DNA of 62,818 nucleotides, filler included, from Chrysochromulina tobinii (GCA_001275005.1; 5 parts of 5 records of this genome joined end to end with filler, not necessarily neighbours in it); one strand, 5' to 3'; numbered from the whole stretch's first letter, positions 2,331 to 55,665 are shown. Translations and numbers: made by a program. Notes: generated by a model from the letters alone, not told the origin.

Positions 2331-3145
2331 CTTCGAAGCCTCAAATTGTTCACTTTGGCCGAACCGCGTCGTGCCGGGCGGCGGCTTGAGTCGATACCGG
2401 AAGCAATCCCGGCTCCCCCCGGTTTCTTTTTACCGGAAGCAATAAAGGGTGCCAGTGTTTGTGCGCGATCATCTTAGATGCGATACAATTCTTCCAAAAA
2501 AGGTGGAAAGCTGGAAACTGAGTCCAAACTGTTTCGTACATGTACATGTATGTACAAATCAGTACGCCGGTACGGTGTATCCTCTTTCGCCTCCTCGTTT
2601 GGCCGCAGTCGCCTCTTTCGCCCCGGTGGTTTGCCTGCGCTTCTTTGGTGTGTCCGTGAGACCCCTGCGTGAGACCGTGAGCAAATATGTCTGTGAGTGC
2701 TGAGTCGGACCGGTGCCGATCTTCATCGTCCGTGTAGAACCGTGTGAGAGTGTCCCGGCTCCCCCGGTTCCGGTTCAGAACGGTTCAGGTCTCATAACAC
2801 CTAAGTCCCTGACCTAAGTGTCTCCTAGTGAACCTTCTCCTGTGAATAGAGGATGGCTGTGCAGTTGTGGCTGTGATAAGGGGGTCCAGGGGTCCCCGAG
2901 CTACATGTAGTGGTAACCGCATCCATACATATGTATGTACTTGTACGCCGGTCCGGTGTCTTCATGGGTTTCGAACTTGTATACAGTAAACCATTGGCTG
3001 TGAATATTCTGAACCGTGTCTGTGAGTGCGGTACGCGTTGTAGCACGTCGCGAGCATGAGAATGAAGCGACTGTGACGTGTGCGAGGTATTGCCCTCGAC
3101 GTATTTGAGTTTGCGCTGCACGTGTGTTGTGAATGAATCTTCGCG

Positions 3146-4210
3146 ATGCCCATGAAGTGCTGCCTTCTTGCTGTGCTTCTTCTGCTCGCGACAACCAAGT
3201 CCTCGAGCACTCCGGGCATCATTGGCCGCGCATTCCAACGCCTATCCCCCAACGCCGAGGATGCCAACCTCCGCGAACCCGACCATGACACACATCAGCA
3301 AGCAAAAAGCCAGCCACCGCGGTGTGAGCACATCTACAAGGTGCACGTGCCCTTGGCGCATCTGCCCATCACAGAAATCCTCTGCCTCATCATCCTATTG
3401 GAGCTCGCCATCGTCAGCTCAAAAATCTCGGCAGCGACCCCCTCACTCGAGGCACTCTTCGTTGAGTGTACTAAGGAGCATATGGGTGAGCACGGCCGAC
3501 GCGACTTGGCTCCGGCGCAGGCGTCGCGAACGAGCCCGCGCGCTCGTAACCGCACAGAGGGCGCGGTGCCTCTGGTGGAGCGTGTGCTGCGCACAAATGC
3601 GGCCACCTTTTCGGGCGCGCTGCTGGGCGAGGACGACGTCGACTTGGCCGAGTTCATGCGCGGATGTCGCGAGTTCCGTGACACGATTCTCGCCAAGATG
3701 GGCTCGTTCACCACACCAGCGGCGAAGCAGGTGAGCGACAACCTCGCCAAGATCGAGACCATCTATGCGCTGCAGCCCGAGCGCTTCCGCTCGATGCGCG
3801 CCATTCTCGAGGAGGAGGTCACTTCGCAGATGCACTCACGCATGCGGGCGAGCGGGCTCGCAGACCCATCCGCCGCGATGGGTCTCCTGTGGGCGCGCCG
3901 TGGGCTCCAATATTGGATAGTGCTCTTCCGGCCTCTGCTGGACGGCACAGGTGGCCCGCCCGGCTACCACGAGGCCATGGCCGCGTACGAGCAGACTATT
4001 GGTCCGTATAACGGCTGGGTGATGAGAAACATGGTGTCGATGACGGCGCGCGTGACGCCCGCTGGGCATGGGCTCATGGGCCTCGCGCCGAGCAATGAGG
4101 AGCTTCTGGAAGACATGCGCAAGTGGACGGAGGCCGTGGGTTCAGTGCTCGCGCGCGGCCGGCGGCTGCACGAAGTGCTCGATTTGGAGGATCAGACGAA
4201 GACCCTTTGA
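3146..4210 (+). CDS. Glycolipid transfer protein (GLTP) domain protein with N-terminal signal-like/hydrophobic segments
   Basis: VDLAEFMRGCREF...QVSDNLAKI...SAAMGLLWARRGL...AYEQTIGPYNGWVMR matches the GLTP-fold motifs LLWLxRGL and AY..TL..YHGW. Confidence 0.75.
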   Translation: MPMKCCLLAVLLLLATTKSSSTPGIIGRAFQRLSPNAEDANLREPDHDTHQQAKSQPPRCEHIYKVHVPLAHLPITEILCLIILLELAIVSSKISAATPSLEALFVECTKEHMGEHGRRDLAPAQASRTSPRARNRTEGAVPLVERVLRTNAATFSGALLGEDDVDLAEFMRGCREFRDTILAKMGSFTTPAAKQVSDNLAKIETIYALQPERFRSMRAILEEEVTSQMHSRMRASGLADPSAAMGLLWARRGLQYWIVLFRPLLDGTGGPPGYHEAMAAYEQTIGPYNGWVMRNMVSMTARVTPAGHGLMGLAPSNEELLEDMRKWTEAVGSVLARGRRLHEVLDLEDQTKTL

Positions 4211-30088: not shown

Positions 30089-31613
30089 GAGATCGATGAC
30101 GAGGGGCCAACCCGCCTGCTGAAGGCGGAACGTCTTGCAGAGCTCCGCAGAGCACCGTTCGTACGTCGTCCAGCCGCGGCTGTCGTACGTGCGAATTGCA
30201 TCGAACGATTTCGGCAATTTCTTGGGCAGCTCGGTGAGCAGAATGACCGTCGTCTTGGAGTGCGCGTACCACAAGTCCAGCGTGCCCAGTGCAAATTTCG
30301 CCGCCTGGGCCTGCGCCTCCGTTTTGCTGTCGCGGTAGCGATCGGCCGCGCGCCGCTGGTCCTCGGTGCGCTCCTCTTCGGCTATGAGCTCGGCCGGAGT
30401 CCACAGCCTCGGATCCTTCTGAAAGAGGGAGGCCCAGTCGAAGAAGACGCCCATGTCGCGGAAGCCGTAGGCCTGGCACACGCCGAGCAGCCCAGAGCGG
30501 CGCAGCACGCCGAGGCTTGGGAAGAGGGTCTTCAGCCGTGTGCACAGCAGCCGCAGCTGCTCGCCGTCGCAGTCCGGGTGCCTCGGTTCCAGCCAGCAGC
30601 TGCGAGTGCACGCGGGGACATGCGGACCGTGTGAGAGGTGGGCGCCAGACACAACGAGGGGGATTGCGACTCAACGAGGGGGCGTTCGGCGCGACGTGAC
30701 GCGTACTATGAGATGGCGACGATAGGGAGCAGGTCGTCGACGTTGCGCTTGACAAACTTGCACGAGAAGATATGGAAGAGCACGCGCATCACGCGCTTGA
30801 GCAGATTACCCTCACCAAGCTGCATCTCGAGCGTAAACGTCTCGTAAAACGAATAAAAGTCCACGCCGCGCTTCGCCTGCCGTGAGATCTTCCGCAGCTC
30901 GTCGACGCCGATGAAGGCGGCCTCAGGCAGCTCCTGCCGCCGCGGCAGGACGCCGCCGTATTCCTTGTGCACGCTGCTGCCTGGCTGGCCGAGCGCGAGC
31001 AGCCACGACAGGCGCACCAGGCGCACCGGCCGCTCGCTCTCCTTGACGCCGTCGCCCTCGAGCGCTTTCCAGACCTCATCGTGCCCGAGGTAGCGCCGCG
31101 CAGCCGCCTGCGCTTCTTCGGAGGAGACGGCAGGGCTCGTACCTCTCTCGGGTGTGAGGGTGCCACCTCGCGATGCGATTGGGACAGCTCGGGACGCTCC
31201 GAAGAGGGAATGCCACTGCACGAGCACAGCCTGATGCCGACGGTCAGGCACAAGAGCGAGAGTGGGAGATACATAAACTCCACACCTAAGACGATTGCAC
31301 TCACGATGCCCATGATCAGGGTCACGGGCAGGATGCACAAGTGGACCGCGCGGGGAATCGCGTGCAAGTCATGCAAGTAGAGGTGCCAGGCGAACATATG
31401 GAGCGGCACAAGAACGAAGAGCAGAAAGGGCATGGCGATGGGCATGGCAGCGGGTCCGATGAGAGCAACGAGCAGCATGGCCTGGATCACGTAGCAGAGG
31501 GCGATTTGAATGGATGGCTTCCATGGCAGCGCGGTGCCCGACGGCGAACTGCGGGCGCCGCGAGTCTCCTTCACCAACATCACGGCACGACGGGCGGGGT
31601 CTTTTGGCACCAA
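30089..31613 (-). CDS. Host gene: N-terminal TM helices plus a HET-like domain; one clear intron; 3'-truncated
   Basis: Removing GT-AG intron 30600-30706 gives PIVAISYCWLEPRHPD..GEQL, followed by VFFDWASLFQ, DLWYAH and YDSRGWTTYER, which resemble the SY.W / W.D..c..Q / RGW..qE motifs of HET domains. A frame change near 31130-31200 is unresolved. Confidence 0.6.
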
Positions 31614-31718
31614 AGGCGGAACAGCATCTTTGGATTTTGCGATCCGAAGAAGGCTCGCGATGCGGTTTCAGTGAACGTCAGTCAGTTTCGGTCCCCCGCG
31701 CTACGGAGATTTACTACC

Positions 31719-31869
31719 TAGTGACGAAACTGTATCTTACGGAGGTCTAGTACCGGGGGTGACGGGGGGGTTCCTATACAAATTGGGGGGGGGTCCTAGA
31801 TACGATACGTATCCTGATGTATCCTGCACGTATCCTGCATGTATCTTGCATGTATTCTGATGTGTCCCG
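31719..31869 (+). repeat. Junction sequence: TAGTGACG start, long G runs and five 10-11-bp GTAT(C/T)(C/T)TG(C)A(T/C) repeats; transposon-terminus-like or origin-like
   Basis: G5/G7/G9 runs at about 31755-31793. GTATCCTGAT, GTATCCTGCAC, GTATCCTGCAT, GTATCTTGCAT, GTATTCTGAT at 31809-31861, abutting the viral ORF. Confidence 0.6.
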
Positions 31870-34800
31870 ACGAGTTGGCGACCGCCGTGCGCTACCTGAT
31901 CAACCGATCGAAGAGATACGTTGAGAGGCCAACTGCCACCAAATACCACGTGCTCTTCCAGATTTTGACGTACGCGAACATGCTGGTGTCCAAACTCGAA
32001 CCTGGGAGAGTCGAACCCAAGAAGGGCGAGCTCAACTGCCACTTCAAGGAGGAGCGCTTGCAGGCCTTCGGGTACCATAGCATCTACGATGAGGGGCGCC
32101 TGAACTTTCAGTATGAAGATACAACCCCAGAGGCCCAGGAGGAATTTGCACGGAAGCATGGACGCGACGCGCAGACGTACGCTGTGAACGGCAAGACCGC
32201 ACAGGTCTTAAAGGGGTACGAAACGACGTTCGGGCGTGCGAAGGAGGATGTGTTGGATCGAAAAATCAGCGAATTCCGCGATGATTACATGCGCATTATT
32301 GCAATCTACTTTGCAAACCGAGGCGTCGGTTCGACGAAGCTTGGGTTTGATGTCCAACAGAAGCGAACCGGCATGTTGGCAGGCCTCTGGCGCTTCAACG
32401 AAGAGCGAAACAGTCCTCAGTACGTGCAAGCGCCCGTTTGGTTCGCGAAGAAGGGCTACGAGCCCAACGCGAAGACCGGCACCCAAATTTGGCAACCTGT
32501 GTTCAAGGGCTTCGACAAAAAGAAGCTCGATGGCAACGAGCTGACTAAAATGGTTGGCAAGCCGGCCGCGCAGGCTTTTGCAAGGTACTTTCTCGACCAG
32601 ACGGACGCGTACTGGGAAAACGACGTGTTCGAGGACATTGCGCTCCCAGAATCTGACATGACGGTCCGTGAGTGGGTGACGACGCCCTGGCACCTGCACC
32701 ACTTGCCGTACCAGATGCAGTACGCTGTGTTTCGAGACGGCGAGGCGTTTTGCGAAGGCTGCAAGCGTTGCTCGCGGCCGTTTTATGAATACGAGCACTT
32801 GCTGTACTCGGTCGACAAACCCTACCTGACCACCGCGCTGTGGCAGCAACTCGACGACGACGATGGCCGACTGGCGCGCGTCCCAATCCACGACCCGCAA
32901 TTTCAATTGGAAGCGCCGAAGAAAGCGCTCTCGGCCGCCGAAATCGGGTACAAGCCCAAGGCGCCGACGAATCCGAACAAGAGGCCGATACCGATCGTCA
33001 AGGACGCGAGCACTCTCGACAAGCCGGTTTACATTAACGACGGCCAGCAGCCCGACGGCGAACCCTTCGAGCCCGAACCAGGCACGTACAACTTCAGCCT
33101 CGTCATGCTCAAAAAGGAAAACGTGCATGTGAACGACCGTAAGAAGTCGGTCTTCACCAAGGGGTACAACAGCGGCGGTGTACCGTTCCGCAAGTACACT
33201 TCACCCGCTTACTCCGAAGAGCGCAAGCACATGTACAAAGGCATGCCAAACGGCTACATGATGGTCGCGAAGACCTTCGGAAGGCCAGATCACCGGGTTG
33301 TGCGCTCGCACAAGTTTGGCAACACGTGCAGGGACTGCCAACACATCCTACAGAACGCTCCAGGCCTCTTTGAGCAGAACAACCGCTACGCGTTCGGGCC
33401 GCAAGAGCCGAACGCCGGGAAGCAGCAGTTCACGACCTTACCACGCGAGAACATGTACGACAAGCTGTTCAAGCCCGCGAAGGACCAGCGAAGAGACGAC
33501 GAAACCCTCGACGACACGCTCGAACGGATCCGCGCCTCGCTCGCCGCGCGCAACAAGCTCCCACCGGGCTGGTCGAAGATCGTCGACGTCGACATCGCAA
33601 TCAACAGAGATCCGCGGCGGGTCGAGAAGCCAAGCGCTGACACGAAACAGGCAGAGGAGGACCTCGCGTTCCTTCTGTCCACTGGACGACCACCGGCAAA
33701 TCCGGACTGGCTGAAGAACCCGGCGCTCCGGCGCAGTCTCGAGCAACTGCGGAGCAAGTTCACACACACGCGGCAGACCGAGCGTGTGCAGAGCGCGACC
33801 GGGCGGTTCGAGGCCGGGATCCAGCGGCACGAGTATCGCAACTGCATACTGCGCTACGAGTTCAAGAAAGAGGACCAAACGTTCAGCTTAGAGTGGCTCA
33901 ACCCATCGCCGGAGCTGTGCGAGGGCTTCAGCGGCGTCAGTGGTTGGGAAGCGGAGGGCCCTGATGGGAGGCTCAAATTCGACGGCAAGGAGCAGGCGTT
34001 TGGCAAGGGCTGTGCTCTTCCGGGTGACGACGCCTACTTTGGCAGGTACACAATTGCTCGGCTCAGCAAAGCGAAACGGCCCTATGCTGGCCTACCCGAC
34101 GGCAGTAAGGTCTATTACAACTGCCTGATCACGCGCCAGTATGACCCTGTGAACGACCCGACGAAGAAGAAGCGCTACCGCGTCGAGGCGTACGTGGCCA
34201 CGCTGCGAGGCGAGGAAGCCGAGGTCGTCGAGCAACCACCGGGATGCGAGTCGCAGTGGCAGGGCGACGGGTACCTCTTGTACAAGTACGAAGGACCAGG
34301 CGACCGACAAACGGAGTGGTTCCGCGATGCAAGACCGGTCTGGTACCAGCTGCGCGAACTGGTGCAGACGCGCGTCTTCATCACGTACTCGCTGCACCGA
34401 CCAGTCAGCGGCACGCGCGAGGGAGAGGACATCTTGCTCAAGATGGGCGGCGCCGTGTCGGCGCTCTTCGGCAACGACGAGTGGCTGAGCCAAATGCTCA
34501 AGTTCGGGAAGAAGCTCGCGAGGGTGCAAGTCACCGACAACGTCGGCAACACCGATTGGATCCCAATCGAGAAGCCGAACAAGGCAGAGAAGACCTTCTA
34601 CGGCGGTCGCAAGATCATCAACCAAAAGAACGTGGTGAACAACTCCTACGAGTACGACACGTTTGATACACACGTGGACTCAGTCGAGCTCGACGGCGGC
34701 GTCGAAGTCGGACCGAAGCTGGGCCACCCACACTTCCACCTTCTGCTCACGCTCACACACTTCACGTACCTGCAATTCGACTACTACACGATGAAGGTCT

Positions 34801-35105
34801 TCCTCGAGATCATGTTCAAGGGCCTGCAGACCCACCACGGCTTTCCAACGGACTTCAGGCTCGGCACGCCCGACGACCTCTTTTACGGCGACAACGAGAA
34901 CCCGTACGTCGACCTACGACTGTACCCGGCCGACAACTTCATGGAGGTCCTGCACAAGTACGTGCGCAAGAACGACGCGTTTGCAAAGGTGAGCGGCGCT
35001 TTGATGAATGTGATCGACAACACGCCGATGGAGAAGGACGGCGAGGAGGGCGACGACGAGGAAGCCGACGAGGAGGAAGAGGAGGAATTTCCTATTGGGT
35101 TTTAA
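31839..35105 (+). CDS. Large viral protein with a C-terminal rolling-circle HUH endonuclease domain; probably 5'-truncated
   Basis: RCR motif I VFITY (34374-34388), motif II EVGPKLGHPHFHLLL (34704-34748), motif III YVRK (34959-34970); Cys clusters CEGCKRC and CRDC; acidic tail. The first ~10 codons lie inside the junction repeats. Confidence 0.8.
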   Translation: MYLACILMCPDELATAVRYLINRSKRYVERPTATKYHVLFQILTYANMLVSKLEPGRVEPKKGELNCHFKEERLQAFGYHSIYDEGRLNFQYEDTTPEAQEEFARKHGRDAQTYAVNGKTAQVLKGYETTFGRAKEDVLDRKISEFRDDYMRIIAIYFANRGVGSTKLGFDVQQKRTGMLAGLWRFNEERNSPQYVQAPVWFAKKGYEPNAKTGTQIWQPVFKGFDKKKLDGNELTKMVGKPAAQAFARYFLDQTDAYWENDVFEDIALPESDMTVREWVTTPWHLHHLPYQMQYAVFRDGEAFCEGCKRCSRPFYEYEHLLYSVDKPYLTTALWQQLDDDDGRLARVPIHDPQFQLEAPKKALSAAEIGYKPKAPTNPNKRPIPIVKDASTLDKPVYINDGQQPDGEPFEPEPGTYNFSLVMLKKENVHVNDRKKSVFTKGYNSGGVPFRKYTSPAYSEERKHMYKGMPNGYMMVAKTFGRPDHRVVRSHKFGNTCRDCQHILQNAPGLFEQNNRYAFGPQEPNAGKQQFTTLPRENMYDKLFKPAKDQRRDDETLDDTLERIRASLAARNKLPPGWSKIVDVDIAINRDPRRVEKPSADTKQAEEDLAFLLSTGRPPANPDWLKNPALRRSLEQLRSKFTHTRQTERVQSATGRFEAGIQRHEYRNCILRYEFKKEDQTFSLEWLNPSPELCEGFSGVSGWEAEGPDGRLKFDGKEQAFGKGCALPGDDAYFGRYTIARLSKAKRPYAGLPDGSKVYYNCLITRQYDPVNDPTKKKRYRVEAYVATLRGEEAEVVEQPPGCESQWQGDGYLLYKYEGPGDRQTEWFRDARPVWYQLRELVQTRVFITYSLHRPVSGTREGEDILLKMGGAVSALFGNDEWLSQMLKFGKKLARVQVTDNVGNTDWIPIEKPNKAEKTFYGGRKIINQKNVVNNSYEYDTFDTHVDSVELDGGVEVGPKLGHPHFHLLLTLTHFTYLQFDYYTMKVFLEIMFKGLQTHHGFPTDFRLGTPDDLFYGDNENPYVDLRLYPADNFMEVLHKYVRKNDAFAKVSGALMNVIDNTPMEKDGEEGDDEEADEEEEEEFPIGF

Positions 35106-35506
35106 TGCCTAATGGTCCACTCGACGTCCTTCTTGTGGCTCGGCGTGGCTTTGTCGCGCATCGGCTGCGTGCCGTCGTGCTTGTAGCGGTTGACATCGTC
35201 GGTGACCGACGGACCATAGGGTCCGCTGGCCTGGGCTTGCGCGATGAGTTCCGCAAACCGAGTGTTATTACCTGCGATGTTTGCCTGTACTAGGTTCCTT
35301 GGAGGTGGGTCGCGATGTACCGGAGGTAGACGCTGTTCTGCTGCACGGACCTCGTGAACACTCGTCCCGATGAACGTCACTGGCTGCCCCTGCGTCGCTC
35401 CGGGGCCGTTGACGGCGTCCATGGGCGTTGGCGGTGGCATCAGGTGACCCATCGGAATCGGAGGCGCGGTCGGGGGTGGCGCGGGTGTGGAAGGGCTCTG
35501 TCCCAT
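35102..35506 (-). CDS. Small Pro-rich viral protein with N-myristoylation-type start
   Basis: Starts MGQSPS (MGxxxS); TTCTAAG 11 nt upstream; its stop overlaps the HUH ORF stop (TTAA at 35102-35105). Confidence 0.7.
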   Translation of the reverse strand: MGQSPSTPAPPPTAPPIPMGHLMPPPTPMDAVNGPGATQGQPVTFIGTSVHEVRAAEQRLPPVHRDPPPRNLVQANIAGNNTRFAELIAQAQASGPYGPSVTDDVNRYKHDGTQPMRDKATPSHKKDVEWTIRH

Positions 35507-35527
35507 GGCACTCTCGACTTAGAATTA

Positions 35528-35865
35528 CTAGTGTTGTACGGCGTGTTGTTGAAGGTATTCAAGGCCAGAGTGAAGGAATCCAGCTGATGCTGATCCCGAT
35601 CCAAGTGAATTTCCTTGTGTAGGGTGACCGACTAACGCAATTTCAGCAACTCCCATAGGAGTCATTGGGGGATCATGTGGTGCAGTAGGTGGGTGTGTTA
35701 AAACCTCCGATGCAAGACTTCTCGAATGAGTTTGTGCTGTGTTAATCAATGAACGGGGAGACAAGAAGGCTATGGGGGAGACAAGAAGGCTATGGGTGCG
35801 TTAGGGTTAGGTGCGGGAGGTAGTCGTGGTGGTGGGTGTTGCGCACTTGATCCAGACTGCCCCAT
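35528..35865 (-). pseudogene. Small Pro-rich viral protein (MGQSGS...) interrupted by a 20-bp tandem duplication
   Basis: GGGGAGACAAGAAGGCTATG duplicated at 35755-35794. Removing one copy fuses MGQSGSSAQHPPP...IAFLSP to RSLINTAQ...QQHAVQH*. Confidence 0.7.
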
Positions 35866-35885
35866 GACATACCTTCGATTTAGAA

Positions 35886-36176
35886 TTACACGAACATCAT
35901 CCTGCCGTACCGGGCGAGTAAGCTCAGGAGGATGAGCATCGTGAGCGCCTTTCTCGTGCCGTTGAGCACGCCCAGCTCTCGTGTAAACTTGCCGTGTTGT
36001 GCCAGTGACTCTTTCGCCGCTATGTAATCTTGATACACTTTGTGGTTCTGCCCTTCGACCGCCTCTTTCCATTCGTTGCTCATACTTTCGTAGTCCTGGA
36101 CAAATTTGGTCCAATTTGCGACGTATTCTGCGTCGGTGAGCTTCTCGGTTCGGTTCAGCTCGGTTAAGACCCCCAT
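35886..36176 (-). CDS. 96-aa helical viral protein with a C-terminal hydrophobic segment
   Basis: MGVLTELNR...ALTMLILLSLLARYGRMMFV; TTCTAGA 17 nt upstream. Confidence 0.65.
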   Translation of the reverse strand: MGVLTELNRTEKLTDAEYVANWTKFVQDYESMSNEWKEAVEGQNHKVYQDYIAAKESLAQHGKFTRELGVLNGTRKALTMLILLSLLARYGRMMFV

Positions 36177-36228
36177 CACTAACAACGTCTTACTCTAGAA
36201 AGTTCTAAACTTCAATCCGAACTGATGT

Positions 36229-36728
36229 TCACTCTGGTTCGCAAGGTTTGCCATAGTCTGGGGTGCCTGATCGGTCAAACACGCGCGACGGACGCTCCTC
36301 CAGCAGGTACACCTCGCGCTGCACCTGGCCCTTGTCCTTCTCCGGAAACGTCTGATCGCGAATCGTCTGAGCCACGATTGGCAAGACCCCCACGCCCCGA
36401 ACGTCCCGAAGACCCCCCCGCCACGTGTCGCACCCCCAGTTTCCAATCCCGACCTTCGAGGGAAACTTGGGGAGTGTCTCCACCTCGTCAACGCTTGGGA
36501 CGTAGGGATCCGGCGGCGTTTCAGATGCCACCGCTAGCATGGGCAAGAGGACGTTGAGCTGCTGCTGAGCTGCTCGCGAATCTTGCGTCCGTTTTCGACC
36601 GAATGCTTGTGATTGTAATCGCCCTCGTAGATCCACGGGTTCTGGCGGTTCGGATCGACCGTCTGCGTGTACAGGTCGTAGTCGACGTACTTGTCGATCG
36701 TGTCATACTCCACTAATGAGCTGGCCAT
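36229..36728 (-). pseudogene. Viral hypothetical protein with a 1-nt frameshift near 36565
   Basis: MASSLVEYDTIDKYVDYDLY...RKIREQL continues as QQQLNVLLPMLAV...GKPCEPE* in another frame; ATG overlaps the upstream TGA (TGATG). Confidence 0.6.
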
Positions 36729-37606
36729 CACGCGCGCCTCTGTCTGTACCATAAGAAGATTAGCACACCGCCAACCGTCACAGTCCCTATTGCGATTATC
36801 GGCATCATGCTGCCGGACGACTGTTGCTGCTCGTGGTGTCGGTGATGAGGCTGTGGCGGCGGCGGCGGGTCGCTCGTGACGCGCAGTTGGTGCTGGTCGG
36901 TTTGCAGCAGCGTGACCGGAGGGAGCACCGCCGCGTGGTCCTGATTGTACACGCGCTGTGGCTCGACCTCGCGTGCTTGGTAGGCGCTCGCGACGACTGG
37001 GATCGGTTGCGGCGCGCCCTGCGTCGCTGCGGGACCGGTGGCACTGCACGGCGTTTGAGCCATAAGAACGCCTTGATTGGCGTCGTGCACGCCCGCCGCT
37101 GGTAGCGGACTCCCGTCATAAGGGCCCACGGCCATGGGCGCAGTGAGATTTGGTGCAACGGCCGCGACGCCCGCTGCTTGCACCTGCGCGTTGGTCGAAT
37201 TTTGAACGGTCTGTGCGTGTGTCTCACCGTCCGCTGTCGTCAGGCCCGTGTAGACAGCTTGCGCCAAGTGGACTTCATTCACCGTCTGCTGCACCGTACC
37301 TCGCACCACTCCTACAACGTCACCCGAAGCCAAAGCCACTGCAGTTGAACCGGCTTGAGTCACTACGGCGCTGGCAGCTTGGCCTATCGGACCGGACGTC
37401 GCGCTGTGAACCGTCGACGAGATCTGATCGACCGCCGACTGCCCGACGACTTGCGCGGCGGCCATCCCAGCCTCTCGCGTGACCTCCCGTGCGACACTCG
37501 TCGCGACCGGCATCAAAGTGCGCCCGATCGTAGGAGCAATAGCTCTGGCACCGAAACTCAAGGCAGCGCGCCCTGCTGTCATAGCGAAGGGGACAGCAAG
37601 AAACAT
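36728..37606 (-). CDS. Ala/Thr/Gln-rich viral protein with C-terminal TM anchor
   Basis: 292 aa ending MMPIIAIGTVTVGGVLIFLWYRQRRA; TTCTGAT 14 nt upstream. Confidence 0.75.
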   Translation of the reverse strand: MFLAVPFAMTAGRAALSFGARAIAPTIGRTLMPVATSVAREVTREAGMAAAQVVGQSAVDQISSTVHSATSGPIGQAASAVVTQAGSTAVALASGDVVGVVRGTVQQTVNEVHLAQAVYTGLTTADGETHAQTVQNSTNAQVQAAGVAAVAPNLTAPMAVGPYDGSPLPAAGVHDANQGVLMAQTPCSATGPAATQGAPQPIPVVASAYQAREVEPQRVYNQDHAAVLPPVTLLQTDQHQLRVTSDPPPPPQPHHRHHEQQQSSGSMMPIIAIGTVTVGGVLIFLWYRQRRA

Positions 37607-37627
37607 GGTTTCTTACTTTAATCAGAA

Positions 37628-38218
37628 TTACTGCTTGTACACCCAAATCGCCCCACCAATGATCACACCGGCTGTGAGCAGGTACGTGACGTTCCGTACT
37701 GTGTTGGCGCCGTGTTCAATCCCGTGGCGCAAGTCGCCCGGAATGGACATGAGCCAATGCCCCGCGTCGCCCGCACCATCCAAGAAATTATCGACTGCGC
37801 TCGGAGGATCAGATCTGGGGCCTCGATGGTCGAGCAAACTCATCACACCGCCACCGACGACCGGAATCGCCGCGTACAAGGCCGCTTGCCCGAGTGTGCT
37901 TCCGACCCCACTCGTGATTCTCGAGAACATGCTCCGCGTCGGCGTCGGCGCATTCGATGGATTCGGCGTCGGCGTCGGGTGCGTCGACGGCGCTGGCGGT
38001 CCTTGGTGAGGCGGCGTCGTGCTCACCGGTGGGTGCTGGCTCGTCAGGGTAGGGTTCGATGCGTGAGGCGCAGCGGGCGGCACGGTCGCATTCCCGGTCG
38101 GCGCATTCGTCGCGTGCGCGGGCGGGTCCGGATGCGGCGTCGGTGCGGGTGGGCGGCTGGGGTTTCCGCTTGCTGGCGTTCGCGGAAGTGTCGGCAGATG
38201 AAAGGAGAAACGACCCAT
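37628..38218 (-). CDS. Pro-rich viral protein with hydrophobic central and C-terminal segments
   Basis: 196 aa ending VTYLLTAGVIIGGAIWVYKQ; TTCTGAG 13 nt upstream. Confidence 0.75.
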   Translation of the reverse strand: MGRFSFHLPTLPRTPASGNPSRPPAPTPHPDPPAHATNAPTGNATVPPAAPHASNPTLTSQHPPVSTTPPHQGPPAPSTHPTPTPNPSNAPTPTRSMFSRITSGVGSTLGQAALYAAIPVVGGGVMSLLDHRGPRSDPPSAVDNFLDGAGDAGHWLMSIPGDLRHGIEHGANTVRNVTYLLTAGVIIGGAIWVYKQ

Positions 38219-38239
38219 TCTTCACCGAGCGCTCAGAAT

Positions 38240-38903
38240 TTACAGCGCGTCGGCATTCGGCGGTTTGTTCACTGGCTTCCCCACTCGTCCGGACCGCCTT
38301 TGCAATCTCCGGATTCTGGTTCGCCGCGTGGACTGTCACGACCGTCGCGCCGATCGCGAGTGCGAGGCGCCACTCGGGCGGCGTGTACATCCCGGTGTTG
38401 TACTTGATCATCAGCTCGTCGATGATCGGCTGGAACTCGTGCATGTTCTGCTGCGTCACGTTGCCGAGCCCGGTGAGGTTGAGGCCCAGCGGATTCCAGT
38501 AATCGGTCGAGCGCTCGAGGCACGTCATGGCCATGCACAGGCCCGACGCGCCAAAGTTGACGCCCTGGCTGCTCCCGAGCTGCAGCTCGAGGTAGTGCAG
38601 CTCGTCCTCGATCTCCTCGGGCGTGCTCAGCTTCTTGTTGCGCGACTTGAGGTGTGCGAAGCGCTCGCGGTACGCGCTGATCTTGTCGAGCATCAAGCGC
38701 AGCTGCTCGGGCGAGGGAGGGAGCGGCTCGGGCGGCGCGGCCGGGGCTTCGAGCGCCGCGGGCAGGCTGCCACGCTTCGGCTCCTTGGGCTCCTTCGGAG
38801 GCGCGCCGCCGCCCTTCTTCTTCGACGCGCGCTCCTCCTGCGCGGCGCCGAGGACGGCCGGCTCGAGTTCGATGAGGTTCAACGGATCGTAAATTTCGGG
38901 CAT
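38240..38903 (-). CDS. Homolog of a conserved Nucleocytoviricota helical protein family (DUF5767-like); 1-nt frameshift near the 3' end
   Basis: MAMTCLERSTDYWNPLGLNLTG...QQNMHEFQPIIDELMIKY...PPEWRLALAIG.TVVTVHAAN resembles, from memory, the NCLDV consensus GIEFLN..FDPF...LDG...N...Y..IF.EL.EKY...PE.KL...LGGS....H.TN. Deleting one base at about 38284 gives ...KPVNKPPNADAL* ending at 38240, just before the next gene's motif. Confidence 0.65.
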
Positions 38904-38935
38904 CGCTGTCTACTCTGACACTCAGAAACTTTGAC

Positions 38936-39262
38936 TCACTCGACAACATCAATAAACAGCTTCACATACCGCCAAAACTTCTCGTGCATGTGCTCGCGCC
39001 CCTGCACTTCGTTCAGGAGCTGCACGACCGGCTCGAAGCCGGCCTGGCCCGTCGCGAGCGCGATCAGCGCGTCCCAATCGCGCTGCGCCTCGATGTGCTT
39101 GTTCGAGTGCAGCATCGTTGCGAAGGTCGTGAGCTCGAGCTCGAGGCGCGCATCGACCGCCGCGACGTAGTCCATCGCTGCGGACGCGCCGAGCTCCTCC
39201 TGCACCCACGCGGCCATGTTGTGCATCTTGCTCTTGAGGAAGGAGCCGACGGTGTTCATCAT
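38936..39262 (-). CDS. 108-aa helical viral hypothetical protein
   Basis: Clean ORF ending HEKFWRYVKLFIDVVE; ATG overlaps the upstream TGA (TGATG at 39260-39264). Confidence 0.7.
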   Translation of the reverse strand: MMNTVGSFLKSKMHNMAAWVQEELGASAAMDYVAAVDARLELELTTFATMLHSNKHIEAQRDWDALIALATGQAGFEPVVQLLNEVQGREHMHEKFWRYVKLFIDVVE

Positions 39263-39507
39263 CAGATCAGGTAGGTGATCAGTGCCGCACTCAATGGGAC
39301 GGCTAGAAAATGATAGTCAGTGGCTTGCGGGTCGTTTGAGAGGCCCCGCTGCGGGCGCAGCTCGCCCGCCTCTGTGAACGCCGACTTTGGCAGCCCGGCC
39401 GTGAACGCAATGATGCCGACGAGGACGCCGGCGACGAACGCGCGCTTGAGCGGCGTCCCGAGCCCGAGCGCGACCATCGCGCCGCGCACTCCGATCTCTT
39501 CGTCCAT
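39262..39507 (-). CDS. 81-aa two-TM viral membrane protein
   Basis: TM - P.SAF.EAGELRP....T - TM layout recalls small NCLDV membrane proteins (P..F...G..R.F); TTCTAAG 14 nt upstream. Confidence 0.65.
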   Translation of the reverse strand: MDEEIGVRGAMVALGLGTPLKRAFVAGVLVGIIAFTAGLPKSAFTEAGELRPQRGLSNDPQATDYHFLAVPLSAALITYLI

Positions 39508-39531
39508 GTACGCACACGACGCTTAGAATAA

Positions 39532-40512
39532 TTAGATACGGACAGAACGGCCCGCGCTGCCGGCATCACCCACGAATGGAAGTGTATTCGCATTCGTTCT
39601 TGCGTTGTGGTGTACGGCAAGTCTATCATTGTCGATTTGGTACATGTTCCTAGCCATTTGCTCTCGAGTACCACCAGCACTGAGAGGCATGTCGGCACGC
39701 GAAACCGCCCAGGATGTTCCAAGCGTTGGCTGCCGACCCGTCTTCGCTGAATTGAAGGGCAGACCAAGCTTATCTTGGTCATTGAACTTTGTCGCAAACG
39801 CCAAGTACGACAGAATGCCCGGTGCGTATTTATCCGCAAGTCTCGTGCCGGTTCGAACGAGAGACGGACCTTGAAGCTTGCCCTGATCGACCATGTACTT
39901 GAAGTACAGGTCGTCGAACGTGTTGATCCCCCACGAGTCGATCATCTGATTACGAAGCGCGTACTCGTAATCGGCGTGCGCCTGTTGCAAACGCCGATTC
40001 ACATACTCAGGGTACACTTCCATCAAAAACTTCATACTCCCGGGTTGGCGGGGGTCAATGAAGGATTCAACGTACTGGTCAAACTTTGCGAGCTCGGAGG
40101 TGTCCTCCATGTACTTGAGGTACTGGACCTCCTCGTCCGTGATCGGATCGGTGCGCTGAACGCCCGGGGACTGTAAATTTTGAACAGACGCGTTGATGCC
40201 ATCTCGGATCGCCTGGCGTCGGGCCAAATTATCCTTTGCCGCTGAGGGACCCACGTACGAGACGGGGAGTTGCGAGGTCCCATTTGGCATCCAATTTGGC
40301 AAAGTAGTCGGCCTATCCCTACCATTGTCGCCACCGATGTACAGATGCTCAGCGTAGCCCCCTTCAGGAAAGCTTGGTGTCACGTACTGTTGCTGGAGTT
40401 CCAAGGCTCGCGCGGCGTTTTGGACTCCCATCGTCGGATTGGTTCGGGATCCACTCGACCCCGAAATCGACGGCATGCCGCTCGGTGCAGCATCAAGCCC
40501 TGTAGTAGCCAT
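39532..40512 (-). CDS. 326-aa viral hypothetical protein (candidate virion component)
   Basis: Intronless ORF with an ordered helical core FDQYVESFIDPRQPGSMKFLMEVYPEYVNRR...WGINTFDDLYFKYMVDQG; family not recognised. Confidence 0.75.
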   Translation of the reverse strand: MATTGLDAAPSGMPSISGSSGSRTNPTMGVQNAARALELQQQYVTPSFPEGGYAEHLYIGGDNGRDRPTTLPNWMPNGTSQLPVSYVGPSAAKDNLARRQAIRDGINASVQNLQSPGVQRTDPITDEEVQYLKYMEDTSELAKFDQYVESFIDPRQPGSMKFLMEVYPEYVNRRLQQAHADYEYALRNQMIDSWGINTFDDLYFKYMVDQGKLQGPSLVRTGTRLADKYAPGILSYLAFATKFNDQDKLGLPFNSAKTGRQPTLGTSWAVSRADMPLSAGGTREQMARNMYQIDNDRLAVHHNARTNANTLPFVGDAGSAGRSVRI

Positions 40513-40539
40513 GAGATTCTACATCTGCGACTTGGAAAA

Positions 40540-40851
40540 TCAACAGTCTTCGGTTTGAATCTTGAACCAGAGTCCGACCTTTGCGGTATTCGTGGAGACG
40601 GGCTTGAAGGTTCCGGTCGCAGTGTCGTACGTGCGGAGCGTCAAAGTCATCGACGAGAGGTGGCGCGGCGTGAAGGTGTGCGTGTGGATTGGCGTGTGGA
40701 CGTACCCGAGCGTGCCGAGCACGCAGAAGACCTTCTCGCGAAGCGTCTGCTCCGTCGCATTGTGCACGATCGTCGTCGTGTTGCCCTCAACTTCGTCGAT
40801 GTTTAGGAGGAGCGGCGCGAGGGTCGGATTCAAAGCAGGTGCCGCCATCAT
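40540..40851 (-). CDS. Penton/minor-capsid-like beta-rich protein (single-jelly-roll-like, short)
   Basis: LLLNIDEV...KVFCVL...HTFTPRHLSSMTLTLRTYD..G...GLWFKIQT resembles the L.IdE / F.P..L..lti.l / terminal beta-strand pattern of NCLDV and PLV pentons. Confidence 0.5.
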   Translation of the reverse strand: MMAAPALNPTLAPLLLNIDEVEGNTTTIVHNATEQTLREKVFCVLGTLGYVHTPIHTHTFTPRHLSSMTLTLRTYDTATGTFKPVSTNTAKVGLWFKIQTEDC

Positions 40852-40871
40852 CTAATCAGGCGATGAGAAAA

Positions 40872-41026
40872 TTAAGGAGTTGGAGGAGTTGGAGGTTGCT
40901 CCGAGACATTATTTACAACAACTGACGTTGGTAGGCGATGTATCGTCACTGAGGAGTACGCCTGCTCAGTGCCATTCTTCACAACCAATGTGAACACCGC
41001 GGTGAGCAGGTCTTCAGGCGCAGCTG
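40872..41026 (-). CDS. C-terminal fragment of a further viral ORF cut by the contig end
   Basis: Open frame AAPEDLLTAVFTLVVKNGTEQAYSSVTIHRLP...PPTPPTP*, followed by a 20-nt gap containing TTCTCA. Confidence 0.55.
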
Positions 41027-41639: not shown

Positions 41640-44600
41640 ATGGAGTGCAGAGCGAGCGCCGCAGGAAGGGCGCATCGTACACCGAGTGCATCCGCGCCAC
41701 AGACAGAGTCGTGGACCGCCGCCGGGTTCCTCGGGACCCTCGGCATCCCGGAGCTGCTCGCAGCGCAGCTTGTCGAGGTCGGCGGCCCGAACGAGCTCGG
41801 TGCGCTGCAATCGCTCGCTCGCTCGCCGAAGGAGGAGCTCAGGCGGCGCCTGACCTCGGGCATCGACGCTCTCACCGACCGCCTCTCGTCCGCGCTCGAA
41901 AACCTCGCCTCGGGCGCCGCGCCGACGGCCGAGCAGTTGCAGAACAAGTTTATGCAGGATGGCGCCGGGCTGCTGGCATACGGTGACCTGAACACCTTCT
42001 TTGGAGGGCTGGAGGCGATCGTGGGTGCGCCGCTGCCGCGCGTGCGCGAGGCCATGGCCGCAGAGCACACCCAGCAGCCCGACTCGCACCTCGAGTTCAC
42101 GACGGAGAACTATGGCATCACGACGACCTCGGCGATCGAGTGGGCCTTTGTAGCCGAGAGCCGCTCGCACGACGCGTGGCCCGTCGAGGCGAAGCTCGTG
42201 CTCGCACGAAAGCCTGGCGGCAGCACGTCTATGCGCCTTGGAGAGGGAATTGCGGTCGTTGGGCTCGAAAGCACGACGGAGGCGGAGCCGCCTTCAAAGA
42301 AGGCGAAGCTCACATCCGTGCAGGCGCTTGGCAATGCCGTCGGAGAGGAGGAGGAGCGCCTGAACATGCGCCGGCGCGCGCCAATGCCGATCGACGAGCT
42401 GGAGCGGCATGTCGCCGAGCAGAGTGCGCGGTTGCTGGAGCAGGGCGAGCCGGCGCTCACGCTCGAGGAGGCGTTTGGCGCACGGCTGTACACGGGCCCG
42501 CTCTACGTCAAGTACAATGCGGTGCTGCGCGGGCTCAGTTCTGCGCGGCTCGACAGCCCGGTCCTTTACCTGCGCTGCGAGATGGTGCGGCTGTGCTGCT
42601 CCGCGGAGGACGCGGCATTGCACGCGCAAGCTGCCGAGGAGGCCAATGCCAAGCGCCTAGCAGAGGAGCCGTCGTTTGGCGAGCGCAGACCGACGGCGGC
42701 GGACGAGGCGGCGCTGCACGAGTACACGTGCGCTGCTTACGAGGCGGTGGTGCAACGCATCAACAAGTACACGACGACGCTGCACGCGCTCAACTCGGCG
42801 GTCATCAAACTGAGCAAGCTGACCAAGGCGTCGACGGTGTACCGCGGCGTCCACGATATGGTGCTCCCCGATCAGTTCTGGACGCCCAACAAGTACGGCG
42901 TGCGCGGCGGCATCGACAGCGCGTTCATGTCGACAACTCTGAAGCGTGAGGAGGCGATCAAGTACGCAGCAAGCGGGAGAACCGCTCCTCTGATCTTCGA
43001 GATCCAGCAAGGCATGATCGACCGCGGCGCCGACATCTCGTTCCTCTCGCAGTACCCATTCGAGAAGGAGATCCTCTTCAACCCGCTCACGGGGCTCGAG
43101 GTGTGCGGCTCGCGCGTCGAGGGCCAGTTGCTCATCGTCGAGGTGAAGCTGAGCATCAACCTGACGTCGCTCACCATCGAGCAGGTGATCGGCAAGCGCA
43201 AGAAGGTGCTGCAGGACATGGTGTTTGGGCTCGAGGCGGAGGTGCGTCAGGCGCTTCGCACGGAGGGTCTGGCCACAGCGTATGGAACGGAGAAGGTTTT
43301 GGGCGAGTTTCGCAAGGACGTGGAGGAGCACGATCTTGGGCACCCGTCCGAGTGGTACAATGGCGACGAGCGGCTCGCGGAGGCGCTGCAGGGGATGCTC
43401 TTAGCGCGGCGGCAGTACGGGCTCGGCGGGCAGCGGCGGACAAAGGCCCTGGCGGTGCTGAAAATGGACGAATTGAAACGCTGCGGCTTTGAGCCCAAGG
43501 CGTACACATCTATGGTGGTGGAGGCGGTAACGAAGCTCGAGGACTCGGACGTGGGCGTGCGCCGAGCGGCTGTGAAGACGCTCGGCAGCATCCTAATGGA
43601 GCCGGCGACGCTCGCGATGCACGGCGCCGCCCTCGTTGCGAGGCTCGAGGACTCGGACGCGGTCGTGCGCCAGGCAGTGGTGGCGATGCTCGGGAAGCTG
43701 GAGCCGGCGACGCTCGCGATGCACGGCGCCGCCCTCGTTGCGAGGCTCGAGGACTCGGACACGGTCGTGCGCCAGGCAGTGGTGGCGATGCTCGGGAAGT
43801 TGGAGCCGGCGACGATCGCGACGCACGGCGCCGCCCTCGTTGCGAAGCTCGAGAACTCGGACGCGGGTGTGCGCGAGGCGGTGGTGGCGACGCTCGGGAA
43901 GCTGGAGCCGGCGACGCTCGCGACGCACGGCGCCGCCCTCTTTGCGATGTTCAAGGACTCGGACGCGGGCGTGCGCCGAGTGGTGGTGGCGACGCTCGGG
44001 AAGCTGGAGCCGGCGACGCTCGCGACGCACGGCGCCGCCCTGGTTGCGAGGCTCGAGAACTCGGACGCGGGCGTGCGCCGAGGCGGTGGTGGAGACGCTC
44101 GGGAAGCTGGAGCCGGCGACGCTCGCGATGCACGGGGCCGCCCTCGTTGCAAAGCTCGAGGACTTGGGCGCGGGCGTGCGCCGAGTGGTGGTGGCGACGC
44201 TCGGGAAGCTGGAGCCGGCGACGCTCGCGACGCACGGCGCCGCCCTGGTTGCGAGGCTCGAGGACTCGTCCGCGGCCGTGCGCCGAGTGGTGGTGGCGAC
44301 GCTCGGGAAGCTGGAGCCGGCGACGCTCGCGATGCACGGCGCCGCCCTCGTTGCGAGGCTCGAGGACTCGGATGCGGGCGTGCGCGAGGCGGTGGTGGAG
44401 ACACTTGGGAAGCTGGAGCCGGCGACGATTGCGATGCACGGCGCCGCCCTCGTTGCGAGGCTCGAGGACTCGGACGCGGGCGTGCGCCGAGTGGTGGTGG
44501 CGACGCTCGGGAAGCTGGAGCCGGCGACGCTCGCGACGCACGGCGCCGCCCTGGTTGCGAAGCTCGAGGACTCGGACGCTGGCGTGCGCCGAGTGGTGGT

Positions 44601-45765
44601 GGCGACGCTCAGGAAGTTGGGGCCCGCGATGCTCACGACGCACGGCGCCGCCCTCGTTGCGAGGCTCGAGGAGGCCTGCCTCGAGGAGGCCTGCCTGCAA
44701 CCGAAGCGCCTCCTCGAGCAAAAACCGAAGCGCCTCGGGCCAGCGTGGTTCCGTGACCTCTTCGGCTTCGATGAGAGCAGCACGTGGAGAGACAACGTAA
44801 ACCACTTCCACATGGATGGCGATACGCTCGTGTGCAGGACCGCTCCGCAGTTTCCAAGGCAGTTCGTTGGGCGTTTCGAGTGCCCGTCTGTCGCCGAACT
44901 GCGCAGCAAGCTGGCCGCCGCACCGGGTGCGGCCGCGCCGTCGGCAGGCCTTCGTTTCGCGCACCTTGCCGCGCCGGCGGGCGTCGAACCGCTACACTTC
45001 GAGCCGAGTAATGCAGGTGCAGTCTTCCAGGCGGACAGTCAGTTCAACTGCCTCATTATGACCGGCCCCAGCGTGTCGCCCACTGCTGGCGTTGGCATCT
45101 ACTTCAACGACAGGACGCAGGGCATCGCGTGTGCGCTCGCGTGCCCAGCCGCAACCGTGTATCGCAACTACCTCGTGCAGCACGATGGCAGCACAGGGCA
45201 ACACCTCGTGCAGATTGACAACCTGAAGGCGTTGGGCGTGGCCGTCGGCAACGGCGACGGGCGCTACTGGGTTATGCAGAACGGCTACGCGATGCCGGTG
45301 GGTCGCGGCTCGTTGGCCGAGCTCGCCGCACGCCTCAGGACGGAGCCCAACCTGGTCGAGCAGGCCGTGGCCGCGCTGCGCGTCGGCGTGCACTGGGAGA
45401 CCTCGGTGGCGCCGCCGCTCGAGCACCGTGTGTGCCAAGTGTACGCGTCCGCGCTGCCCTGCGCCTACGCGCGCGGGACGCCAGAGAGCGACTGGGAGCC
45501 CTTTGCGCGCCTCGTGCTGCGCGCTGCGTACGAGGCCACGCTCGCCGTCGGAGCTGTACGCTCCTTGGAAGCTGGAGGCGCGCGCGTCAAGTGCTACCTG
45601 ACGGCGCTCGGCGAAGGCGTCTTCGGCAACCGGTACGAATGGATCCGCGATGCGATCTTCGATGCGCTCGATCTGTACCAGGGCTGGCCGCTCGATGTGG
45701 TGCTAGTACACTTCGACAGCTCACGTGTCGATGCGAACTGGGCCCACGACTTGCCGCCAAGGTAG
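41640..45765 (+). CDS. Mono-ADP-ribosyltransferase (R-S-E type) + HEAT repeats + macrodomain/PARG-like C-terminal domain; one frameshift at about 44079
   Basis: RLYTGP.YVKYNAVLR, VYRG, FMSTT and SQYPFEKEILF (ART). About 11 34-aa HEAT-like units. WFRDLFGFDE...FQADSQFNCL...DRTQG...VYRNY...AAYEATL...LGEGVFGN (macro-like). ORFs 41640-44756 and 43636-45765 join through one extra base. Confidence 0.75.
43525..44680 (+). repeat. Coding tandem array, 102-bp unit, about 11 copies
   Basis: Unit encodes VARLEDSDAGVRRVVVATLGKLEPATLATHGAAL. Confidence 0.9.
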
Positions 45766-55314: not shown

Positions 55315-55665
55315 TGCGCACCGCATGCGCACCCAGTAGCAATCCGTTACAAGGCGACTCCCCCACACAGGGGCACCTTGCAACGCTTTCGGAGTAGGGC
55401 GAGGGTCGCGAACCACAGCGTTGGCTTATAGCTGGCGCGACTGCGTGACTGCGTGAGCTGAGCTTCAAAGCATCTCAGCATGGAGCAGAGATGCAAGATT
55501 CAAATTCAGCAGTAACGTCAGAGGGCGTCGCTGGTGTGGACCACCGTATCTTAATCGTATCAGAATAGATCGCATGTATTCAACCGAGCGTGTGCTCGGT
55601 GCCTCTGTCATGGTCGGGTCGGTTCCGCACTTCACGGGACGTGACCTGGTGTGAAAACTGAGGCG

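Follow-up and report, generated by a model that had tools for sequence, protein, structure and literature searches.

Structure of the locus

We analysed a window of 62,818 nucleotides (nt), in which five contigs of the Chrysochromulina tobinii assembly GCA_001275005.1 are joined by N-linkers. Its third contig (30089-41026, 10,938 nt) carries a sequence of the viral family Gamadviridae (Mriyaviricetes) beside a host gene. The original prediction, made from the DNA alone, had placed a mriyavirus-like element at 31719 to 41026. This start must be corrected: viral homology spans 31868 to the contig end at 41026, and about 31701-31867 is a host repeat. In what follows, L-labels denote DNA loci, G001, G002 and G003 related genome records, and P-labels related proteins; L001 is a contig of another assembly that carries the same junction and reaches 3.4 kb past the end of the window contig. 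The features around the junction are:

30089..31580, minus strand: host gene of a multi-copy family, running off the contig; N-terminal hydrophobic segments and, in L001, a C-terminal LRR_6
31701..31867, no strand: high-copy host repeat with poly-G runs and 5.5 copies of an 11-nt GTATC unit; left edge approximate
31868..35105, plus strand: 5'-truncated gamadvirus HUH_long, residue 798 onward of the 1877-aa relative P0019

Intronless open reading frames (ORFs) cover 97% of 31868-41026, which bears out the predicted tight packing. The large plus-strand ORF (31839-35105) meets 13 co-oriented minus-strand ORF pieces, equal to 12 genes, stop-to-stop and overlapping, so the layout of one large gene against at least 12 others is as predicted. 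An abrupt change of GC content was also claimed; it exists, but it is small, from 0.634 in the host part to 0.592 in the virus, with 0.491 in the repeat. The spliced host gene on the same contig was correctly seen. It has a GT-AG intron of 107 nt (30600-30706), and the Chrysochromulina parva model P0551, to which the gene is 82-94% identical, breaks at the same intron.

The large ORF is a gamadvirus HUH_long that has lost its 5' part, not a whole gene as first supposed. The window holds the 3' 58% of the gene and about 800 codons are gone, while the first 11 or so codons of the 1088-aa ORF from 31839 are supplied by the host GTATC repeat. Among 15 homologs found, 10 have 1650-1900 aa. P0001 (97%) and P0002 (67%) both align from residue 12 of the ORF, and the intact relatives L002 and L003 (96% in DNA) start matching at 31868. 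Upstream in L002 are short HUH, PEV_12-like and VLTF2-like ORFs (PEV, Pleurochrysis endemic virus); the present copy, cut off at 31868, has no short HUH, VLTF2 or SF3 helicase. HUH motifs I (34374-34391), II (34725-34739) and III (34959-34970) are intact, and only 6 differences to P0019 were found in 1040 aligned positions, 3 of them private to the window.

Does this protein have the fold of an HUH endonuclease? An AlphaFold2 model of the domain from 67 sequences reached a predicted local distance difference test (pLDDT) score of 86, and its top six structure matches (VIA) were IS200/IS605-type HUH transposases with Z 7.1-7.8. With Foldseek no match reached E 0.001, and the lowest E-values belonged to CRISPR proteins of the RNA recognition motif fold; among the matches listed, SIRV1 ORF119 had the highest probability (E 0.087), and it is also the best match reported by Yutin et al. 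(PMC11253617). A PDB sequence search with the HUH alignment returned 0 matches, and an earlier model from 5 sequences (pLDDT 44) with its Foldseek search was uninformative. As a side observation, a more distant HUH_long cluster has a 64-aa member (P0043) in the EukProt set of the cryptophyte Rhodomonas salina, possibly a second host group, or else contamination.

Junction with host DNA

Is the viral sequence really joined to a host chromosome? The junction recurs in L001, which shows 1 mismatch to the window over 7713 nt starting at 30571, and the exact chimeric protein of 1088 aa is present on 14 contigs. Fourteen mixed-culture sequencing runs hold 0.90-0.93 of the sequence words, and depth and assembly graphs were obtained for 4 of them. 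In all four, one contig of 6526 nt leads from 28 nt inside the repeat into HUH_long, unbranched and with no differences. Its depth of 38-46 lies near that of single host-paralog contigs (34-59); such a comparison of viral and host read depth was proposed in the original prediction. Because the contig is unbranched at the breakpoint, HUH_long as seen in the four runs is the truncated form only, joined to the host repeat. A covalent host junction is therefore seen in two assemblies, on 14 contigs and in four of four runs. A protein under the name of C. tobinii is identical over 1003 residues, and this, together with the C. parva homolog of the flank, gives Chrysochromulina as the host genus. With the same junction in L001, the unbranched contig and an intron-bearing flank, integration in a haptophyte, as first claimed, is very likely. 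Two freshwater RNA runs hold 0.06-0.08 of the sequence words and were not used as evidence.

The repeat at the junction has a period of 11 (Tandem Repeats Finder). Its bin depth is 2800-3500 against about 40 in the virus, a ratio of about 70, in all four runs. Loose ends lie at L001 2914-2923 in all four, where other copies of the repeat continue into an inverted GATAC arm; from these ends we infer that the present copy was cut near the middle of the palindrome. An 18-mer from the repeat is present in L001 alone among 12 loci, the repeat is not found at this place in L002 or L003, and the one arm present folds no better than shuffled sequences (z +1.25). We presume that this unnamed repeat (31701-31867, with GTATC/GATAC inverted arms) is possibly a satellite or a miniature inverted-repeat transposable element. 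A GTATC-like stretch at 55546-55580 was considered as a further copy and rejected as too short.

Gene content and family placement

The minus-strand genes are, from the junction outwards:

35102..35506, minus strand: PEV_14-like ORF, 134 aa, assigned from a shared HDGTQP motif and its position; intact relatives 96%
35528..35865, minus strand: small ORF with its own upstream motif, out of frame via a perfect 20-nt tandem duplication at 35755-35794
35886..36176, minus strand: 96-aa ORF with hydrophobic C-terminus; relatives 96-99%, L003 60%
36229..36752, minus strand: PEV_15, in pieces of 72 and 103 aa because of an 8-nt insertion near 36560-36575
36728..37606, minus strand: 292-aa low-complexity ORF with a C-terminal hydrophobic tail, a predicted membrane anchor
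37628..38218, minus strand: 196-aa Pro-rich ORF with a C-terminal hydrophobic tail, a predicted membrane anchor; relatives 92-96%
38236..38903, minus strand: Mriya_48, envelope-type (Pfam DUF5767, E 1.6e-9)
38936..39262, minus strand: PEV_20, 108 aa, from matches to IMG/VR loci and synteny
39262..39507, minus strand: Mriya_50, 81 aa, two hydrophobic segments
39532..40512, minus strand: Mriya_51, 326 aa; 52-54% to L006 and L009, 265 homologs
40540..40851, minus strand: minor capsid protein, C-terminal two thirds, 103 aa; N-terminal part at L001 12450-12579
40872..41026, minus strand: 3' end of an ORF that sits between the minor-capsid halves and is whole in L001, with 159 aa

The Mriya and PEV names were given by synteny with the gamadvirus genomes of Table S1 in PMC11253617, and DUF5767 was the sole named Pfam family over 13 ORFs of the window. 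Mriya_48 is 46-68% identical to six IMG/VR loci and is gene 13 or 32 in the matched Table S1 genomes. An extra base at 38284 occurs in the window only; L001 and the four runs do not have it, and the L001 version is 100% identical to the 220-aa P0396, thus the base is likely an error of the window assembly. A Yaravirus homolog of Mriya_51 is reported as abundant in virion proteomics (PMC11253617, Table 1). For the minor capsid piece, Atlas matches 2 and 3 are the Sputnik V18/19 minor capsid clusters (0.96-0.97), and a comparison of this half with G001-G003 gave no match. Atlas was uninformative for the 159-aa ORF (best score 0.76). The extension in L001 holds Mriya_1, named from its position, three short basic ORFs, and a YqaJ nuclease (PDDEXK; PF09588, E 1e-19) with homologs in G001 and G002. 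The three Lys/Arg-rich ORFs (L001 13529-14400) each have the upstream motif described below, and two share a GGRCKAG start; they are possible DNA-condensing proteins.

Which viruses are these? A single-protein scan of viral sequences gave no match; an alignment-based scan found relatives of the large ORF on 8 IMG/VR loci, four of which (L004, L005, L008, L010) matched gamadvirus genomes of Table S1 in PMC11253617. G001 and G002, the two related records searched, have the major capsid protein (MCP), A32 ATPase and VLTF3 above Pfam cut-offs. The gene order g12-g11-g10-g9-PEV_15 is kept across relatives. In a tree of 44 HUH domains (quick method, midpoint root, without five motif-lacking proteins and the short-HUH outgroups, with three relatives added to the final version), the window falls among gamadvirus HUH_long in a clade labelled 98*, on a long stem, with L003, P0018, P0019 and P0029. 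The gamadvirus features present are HUH_long with motifs I-III, Mriya_48, Mriya_50, Mriya_51, PEV_20, PEV_15 and a single jelly-roll minor capsid protein, and in L001 also YqaJ and Mriya_1. The predicted mriyavirus with an HUH endonuclease is thus one of the gamadvirus branch. A cellular or phage origin, which the original prediction named as an outcome that would speak against it, was rejected, as all informative homologs are on gamadvirus-type contigs. A new family was rejected likewise, as the window nests among gamadvirus HUH_long. The suggested undescribed lineage therefore does not hold at the family level, and intact relatives 96-99% identical are present in metagenomes; for the sub-lineage that they form with this copy, no name was found in the literature searched. 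One database contig, L007 (P0156; 29,545 nt), is a gamadvirus filed as a Planctomycetaceae metagenome-assembled genome and likely a mis-binned virus.

Neither a double jelly-roll MCP nor an A32 ATPase or VLTF3 was found for this copy in the window and the next 3.4 kb in L001. As the original prediction said, these genes are not visible here, but they need not lie beyond the contig break as it supposed, since they are also missing from the 3.4 kb of L001 and there is an internal deletion at the joint between Mriya_1 and the minor capsid gene. Among the 19 ORFs scanned of the partial element there was no Polinton-like virus (PLV) integrase (RVE or YR) and no pPolB, and no terminal repeat was seen in it. 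Its gene content, with HUH_long and the PEV genes, points to gamadviruses.

Decay and further copies

The element carries several lesions. PEV_15, a single ORF in L003 and L006, has 163-171 aa in 14 of 14 other cluster members listed (15 of the 43 members are listed), and is broken here. In the small ORF at 35528..35865, of which no intact relative was seen, the 20-nt duplication is, we infer, the lesion. Over 308 residues the L001 Mriya_1 is 97% identical to relatives of 539-547 aa; after that its frame is lost and it continues into the minor capsid gene, with an internal deletion of at least 0.7 kb. The joint is at L001 12578/12579, and in G001 the major capsid gene comes after Mriya_1; the deletion could have taken more than 0.7 kb, possibly including the major capsid gene. 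All these lesions are in L001, and the PEV_15 break and the 20-nt duplication lie inside the contig of all four runs. The element is likely no longer able to make virus. The 6 differences to P0019 in 1040 positions of HUH_long suggest that the capture was likely recent.

The two minor capsid halves are a different case. Seven relatives (135-143 aa) hold both halves, and in L001 both are present but apart. Among gamadviruses we observed the whole form (135-143 aa), a C-half with its own start, and a C-half before the N-half (L012 9974-10846, P0217, and window 40540-40851). As P0217 and L012 show C-half-first forms, the separation here may be natural. The forms observed suggest that gamadvirus penton genes are modular or permuted.

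There are also signs of other copies. A second version of L001 11869-12452 (depth 36-41) lacks 582 nt, a multiple of 3, from between the two halves of the minor capsid gene. From the minor capsid gene to YqaJ the depth is two to four times higher, with 3-4x at YqaJ (L001 14440-15500). A paralog of Mriya_51, P0076, 82% identical, is on 14 contigs, and its C-terminus is odd and looks out of frame. The raised YqaJ depth, the alternative joint and P0076 suggest further gamadvirus copies in the same cultures.

Origin of the fragment

How did viral DNA come to lie in the host repeat? We consider it quite probable that this is a 5'-truncated, partly frameshifted gamadvirus fragment that was recently integrated in a Chrysochromulina chromosome, where it adjoins a high-copy host repeat next to a spliced gene, and that host break repair captured it. 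The viral identity, the junction in mid-gene, the lesions and the close match to intact relatives are shown by the data; the mechanism is proposed. Gamadviruses are described as having no polymerase, with nuclear HUH-initiated rolling-circle replication proposed (PMC11253617), and mriyaviruses as having no integrase (10.64898/2026.06.19.733378). An infected cell would have survived, and host break repair would have joined viral DNA to the chromosome. The left joint, between the middle of the palindromic repeat and the middle of HUH_long, might have formed at capture or via a later deletion. The copy would then have been inherited as host DNA, decaying through small duplications and deletions.

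Several points weigh against this reading. No long read spans the joint; the evidence is short-read and from one side only, with the second junction not seen and the right end somewhere past L001. On the repeat side the bridging contig covers 28 letters, less than the 31-letter bar of the tool, and assemblers can make errors in a repeat such as this one, about 70 times as deep as the virus. Copy number cannot be read from contig depth. All 14 culture runs may come from a single campaign on one strain, and the source of L001 may be among them. The window and L001 differ at 29 positions in the distal host gene, so the flank is unevenly assembled. The gene names rest on synteny and not on direct alignment to PEV proteins, and the HUH fold matches are middling (Z below 8; Foldseek E 0.087). 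The relatives called intact are metagenome proteins that could come from other integrated copies rather than from free virus. At most a few bases are shared at the joint, and the repair route is an interpretation.

Some of these points would suit a chimeric assembly, in which the high-copy repeat led to a false join between the host and a free or persistently episomal gamadvirus: the joint is in a repeat of depth about 3000, the distal flank differs between the assemblies, and there are no long reads. An episome needs the 5' half of HUH_long, yet there is no branch at the breakpoint in any of the four runs. In each of them the virus is about as deep as single host contigs. L002 and L003 have no such repeat at the corresponding place, and a replicating virus would not be expected to carry frameshifts and a deletion in conserved genes. 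We regard a chimera as highly improbable. Might the host instead hold a provirus that is largely complete but has had its left arm (helicase, VLTF2, short HUH and the 5' part of HUH_long) and capsid block split off by repeat insertion or by assembly, and that could yield particles with the help of other copies? The HUH motifs and most of the remaining ORFs are intact, the latter with 96-100% identity to relatives. The depth rises 2-4x from the minor capsid gene to YqaJ, an alternative form has L001 11869 joined to 12452, the 82% Mriya_51 paralog is on 14 contigs, and a contig of 24,668 nt extends the locus. These observations have to be set against at least 3 breaks (HUH_long, PEV_15 and Mriya_1/minor capsid) besides the 20-nt duplication, against loose ends by which the repeat looks cut in mid-body and not at an element end, and against the lack of any second HUH_long copy at 90% identity or more that lifts the depth; the C-terminus of the Mriya_51 paralog looks out of frame too. 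A provirus of this kind is very unlikely.

It is about as doubtful that the viral HUH protein itself made the insertion, by strand transfer into the palindromic repeat as IS200/IS605 elements do at hairpins, with truncation later. The nearest solved folds are indeed IS200/IS605 HUH transposases, the repeat has inverted arms, integrase-less gamadviruses recur integrated in Phaeocystis (PMC12480563; 10.64898/2026.06.19.733378), and short tandem repeats are described on the flanks of Phaglo-G (10.1101/2022.07.28.501842). The sole joint seen is in the middle of a viral gene and not where an origin or nick site would be expected. Function does not follow from a shared fold, the present repeat arm folds no better than shuffles, and a single locus cannot show target preference. 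A broader scenario, unlikely in our judgement, is that integrase-less gamadviruses repeatedly and presently enter haptophyte chromosomes by HUH joining to palindromic repeats, that Chrysochromulina holds several copies of a lineage still at large, and that latency belongs to the life cycle. If true, latency would be part of the life cycle of the smallest Nucleocytoviricota. The base-level junction gives a handle on how integrase-less mriyaviruses enter host genomes.

A motif upstream of viral genes

The motif TTCTRA, noted in the original prediction, recurs before the minus-strand genes:

35519, 35880, 37622, 38233, 38922 and 39523 (35519..39528), minus strand: TTCTRA copies, each about 17-26 nt upstream of an ATG

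The motif is real. In the viral part of L001, 11 of 11 minus-strand copies are within 50 nt upstream of an ATG, and 10 of 15 genes have one. Over nine gamadvirus loci, 54 of 116 matches fall in the 10-35 nt before an ORF start, where 4.7 are expected; this positional test is inflated by the stop triplet within the motif and by its location in AT-richer spacers. In host contigs, 0 of 13 matches have this position. The raw count in L001 is mildly raised (17 against 9.9, and 8 of 200 shuffles reach 17). TTCTRA is a putative promoter or terminator signal, and it gives a handle on how mriyaviruses drive transcription with the host polymerase. No prior description of it as a gamadvirus motif was found in the literature searched.

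Comparison with known elements

Gamadviridae were defined by Yutin et al. 2024 (PMC11253617) from Pleurochrysis endemic viruses and metagenomic relatives, with genomes of 35-45 kb and no DNA or RNA polymerase. The present element shares with them the HUH_long motifs, Mriya_48, Mriya_50 and Mriya_51, PEV_14, PEV_15 and PEV_20, the minor capsid protein, in L001 Mriya_1 and YqaJ/PDDEXK, the order of the Mriya_51-to-PEV_15 block, and a haptophyte host. It differs in being a fragment joined to host DNA, of which 12.6 kb are known from the window and L001. Compared with published genomes, the VLTF2-PEV_12-HUH-HUH_long block is inverted with respect to the structural genes; as this is also the case in the intact relative L003, it is a lineage trait. 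The ssb, ATPase and VLTF3 genes are not between YqaJ and the minor capsid gene here, and proteins shared with the published gamadvirus representatives compared are 32-68% identical. The main text of PMC11253617 makes no mention of integration, endogenization or promoters.

That gamadvirus DNA is integrated in haptophyte genomes is already known from Phaeocystis, with the endogenous Yaravirus-like nucleocytoplasmic large DNA viruses PaeNCLDV and PgeNCLDV (PMC12480563) and Phaglo-G NDDV (10.1101/2022.07.28.501842). As described there, these are likewise gamadvirus-type DNA in haptophyte assemblies, with best matches to Pleurochrysis endemic viruses, and Phaglo-G has a host-like GC of 61%. They have 47-54 kb with MCP, ATPase, VLTF3, RuvC and helicase, whereas the present element, of at least 12.6 kb, is truncated and broken; unlike them, it has a Chrysochromulina host, a base-level junction and intact relatives at 96-99%. 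The mriyavirus-like PLVs Zora/VC102, VC218 and VC134 (10.64898/2026.06.19.733378) are also related to Nucleocytoviricota and have Mriya_48 and partly an HUH endonuclease. They are described as often having RVE or tyrosine integrases, none of which was seen here, and HUH_long and the PEV genes are gamadvirus-specific. In the PLV survey of 10.1101/2022.07.28.501842, C. parva had no integrated viruses. We found no prior report of a Chrysochromulina gamadvirus or of this junction, with the literature searched leaving aside supplements that may describe junctions or other hosts. New here, as far as this search shows, are the link to Chrysochromulina, the base-level junction and the family-wide TTCTRA motif.

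Why does the host matter? Nearly all gamadviruses are known from metagenomes only and have no host, and a chromosomal copy 99% identical in protein to intact relatives ties one lineage to a cultured Chrysochromulina, which is likely the host of this virus lineage. Isolation of the virus, studies of its host range and a test of rolling-circle replication thereby become feasible.

Host flank and other window contigs

The LRR_6 domain of the flanking gene has E 6e-8 in its L001 version. The frame changes near 31142, by a 2-nt insertion or a 35-nt intron; paralog contigs do not have the 2 nt at L001 2197 and hence not the frame change. The summed depth over this host gene part is 280-700. The family (window 30089-31580; L001 183-2634) combines membrane segments with leucine-rich repeats and is multi-copy, with many paralogs of 72-92% in metagenomes. 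The remaining contigs of the window have GC-rich ORFs of eukaryote-like type. One host gene at 41640-44756 on the plus strand, continuing to about 45765, encodes an ADP-ribosyltransferase domain (PF03496, PF01129) and, after it, HEAT repeats with a change of frame.

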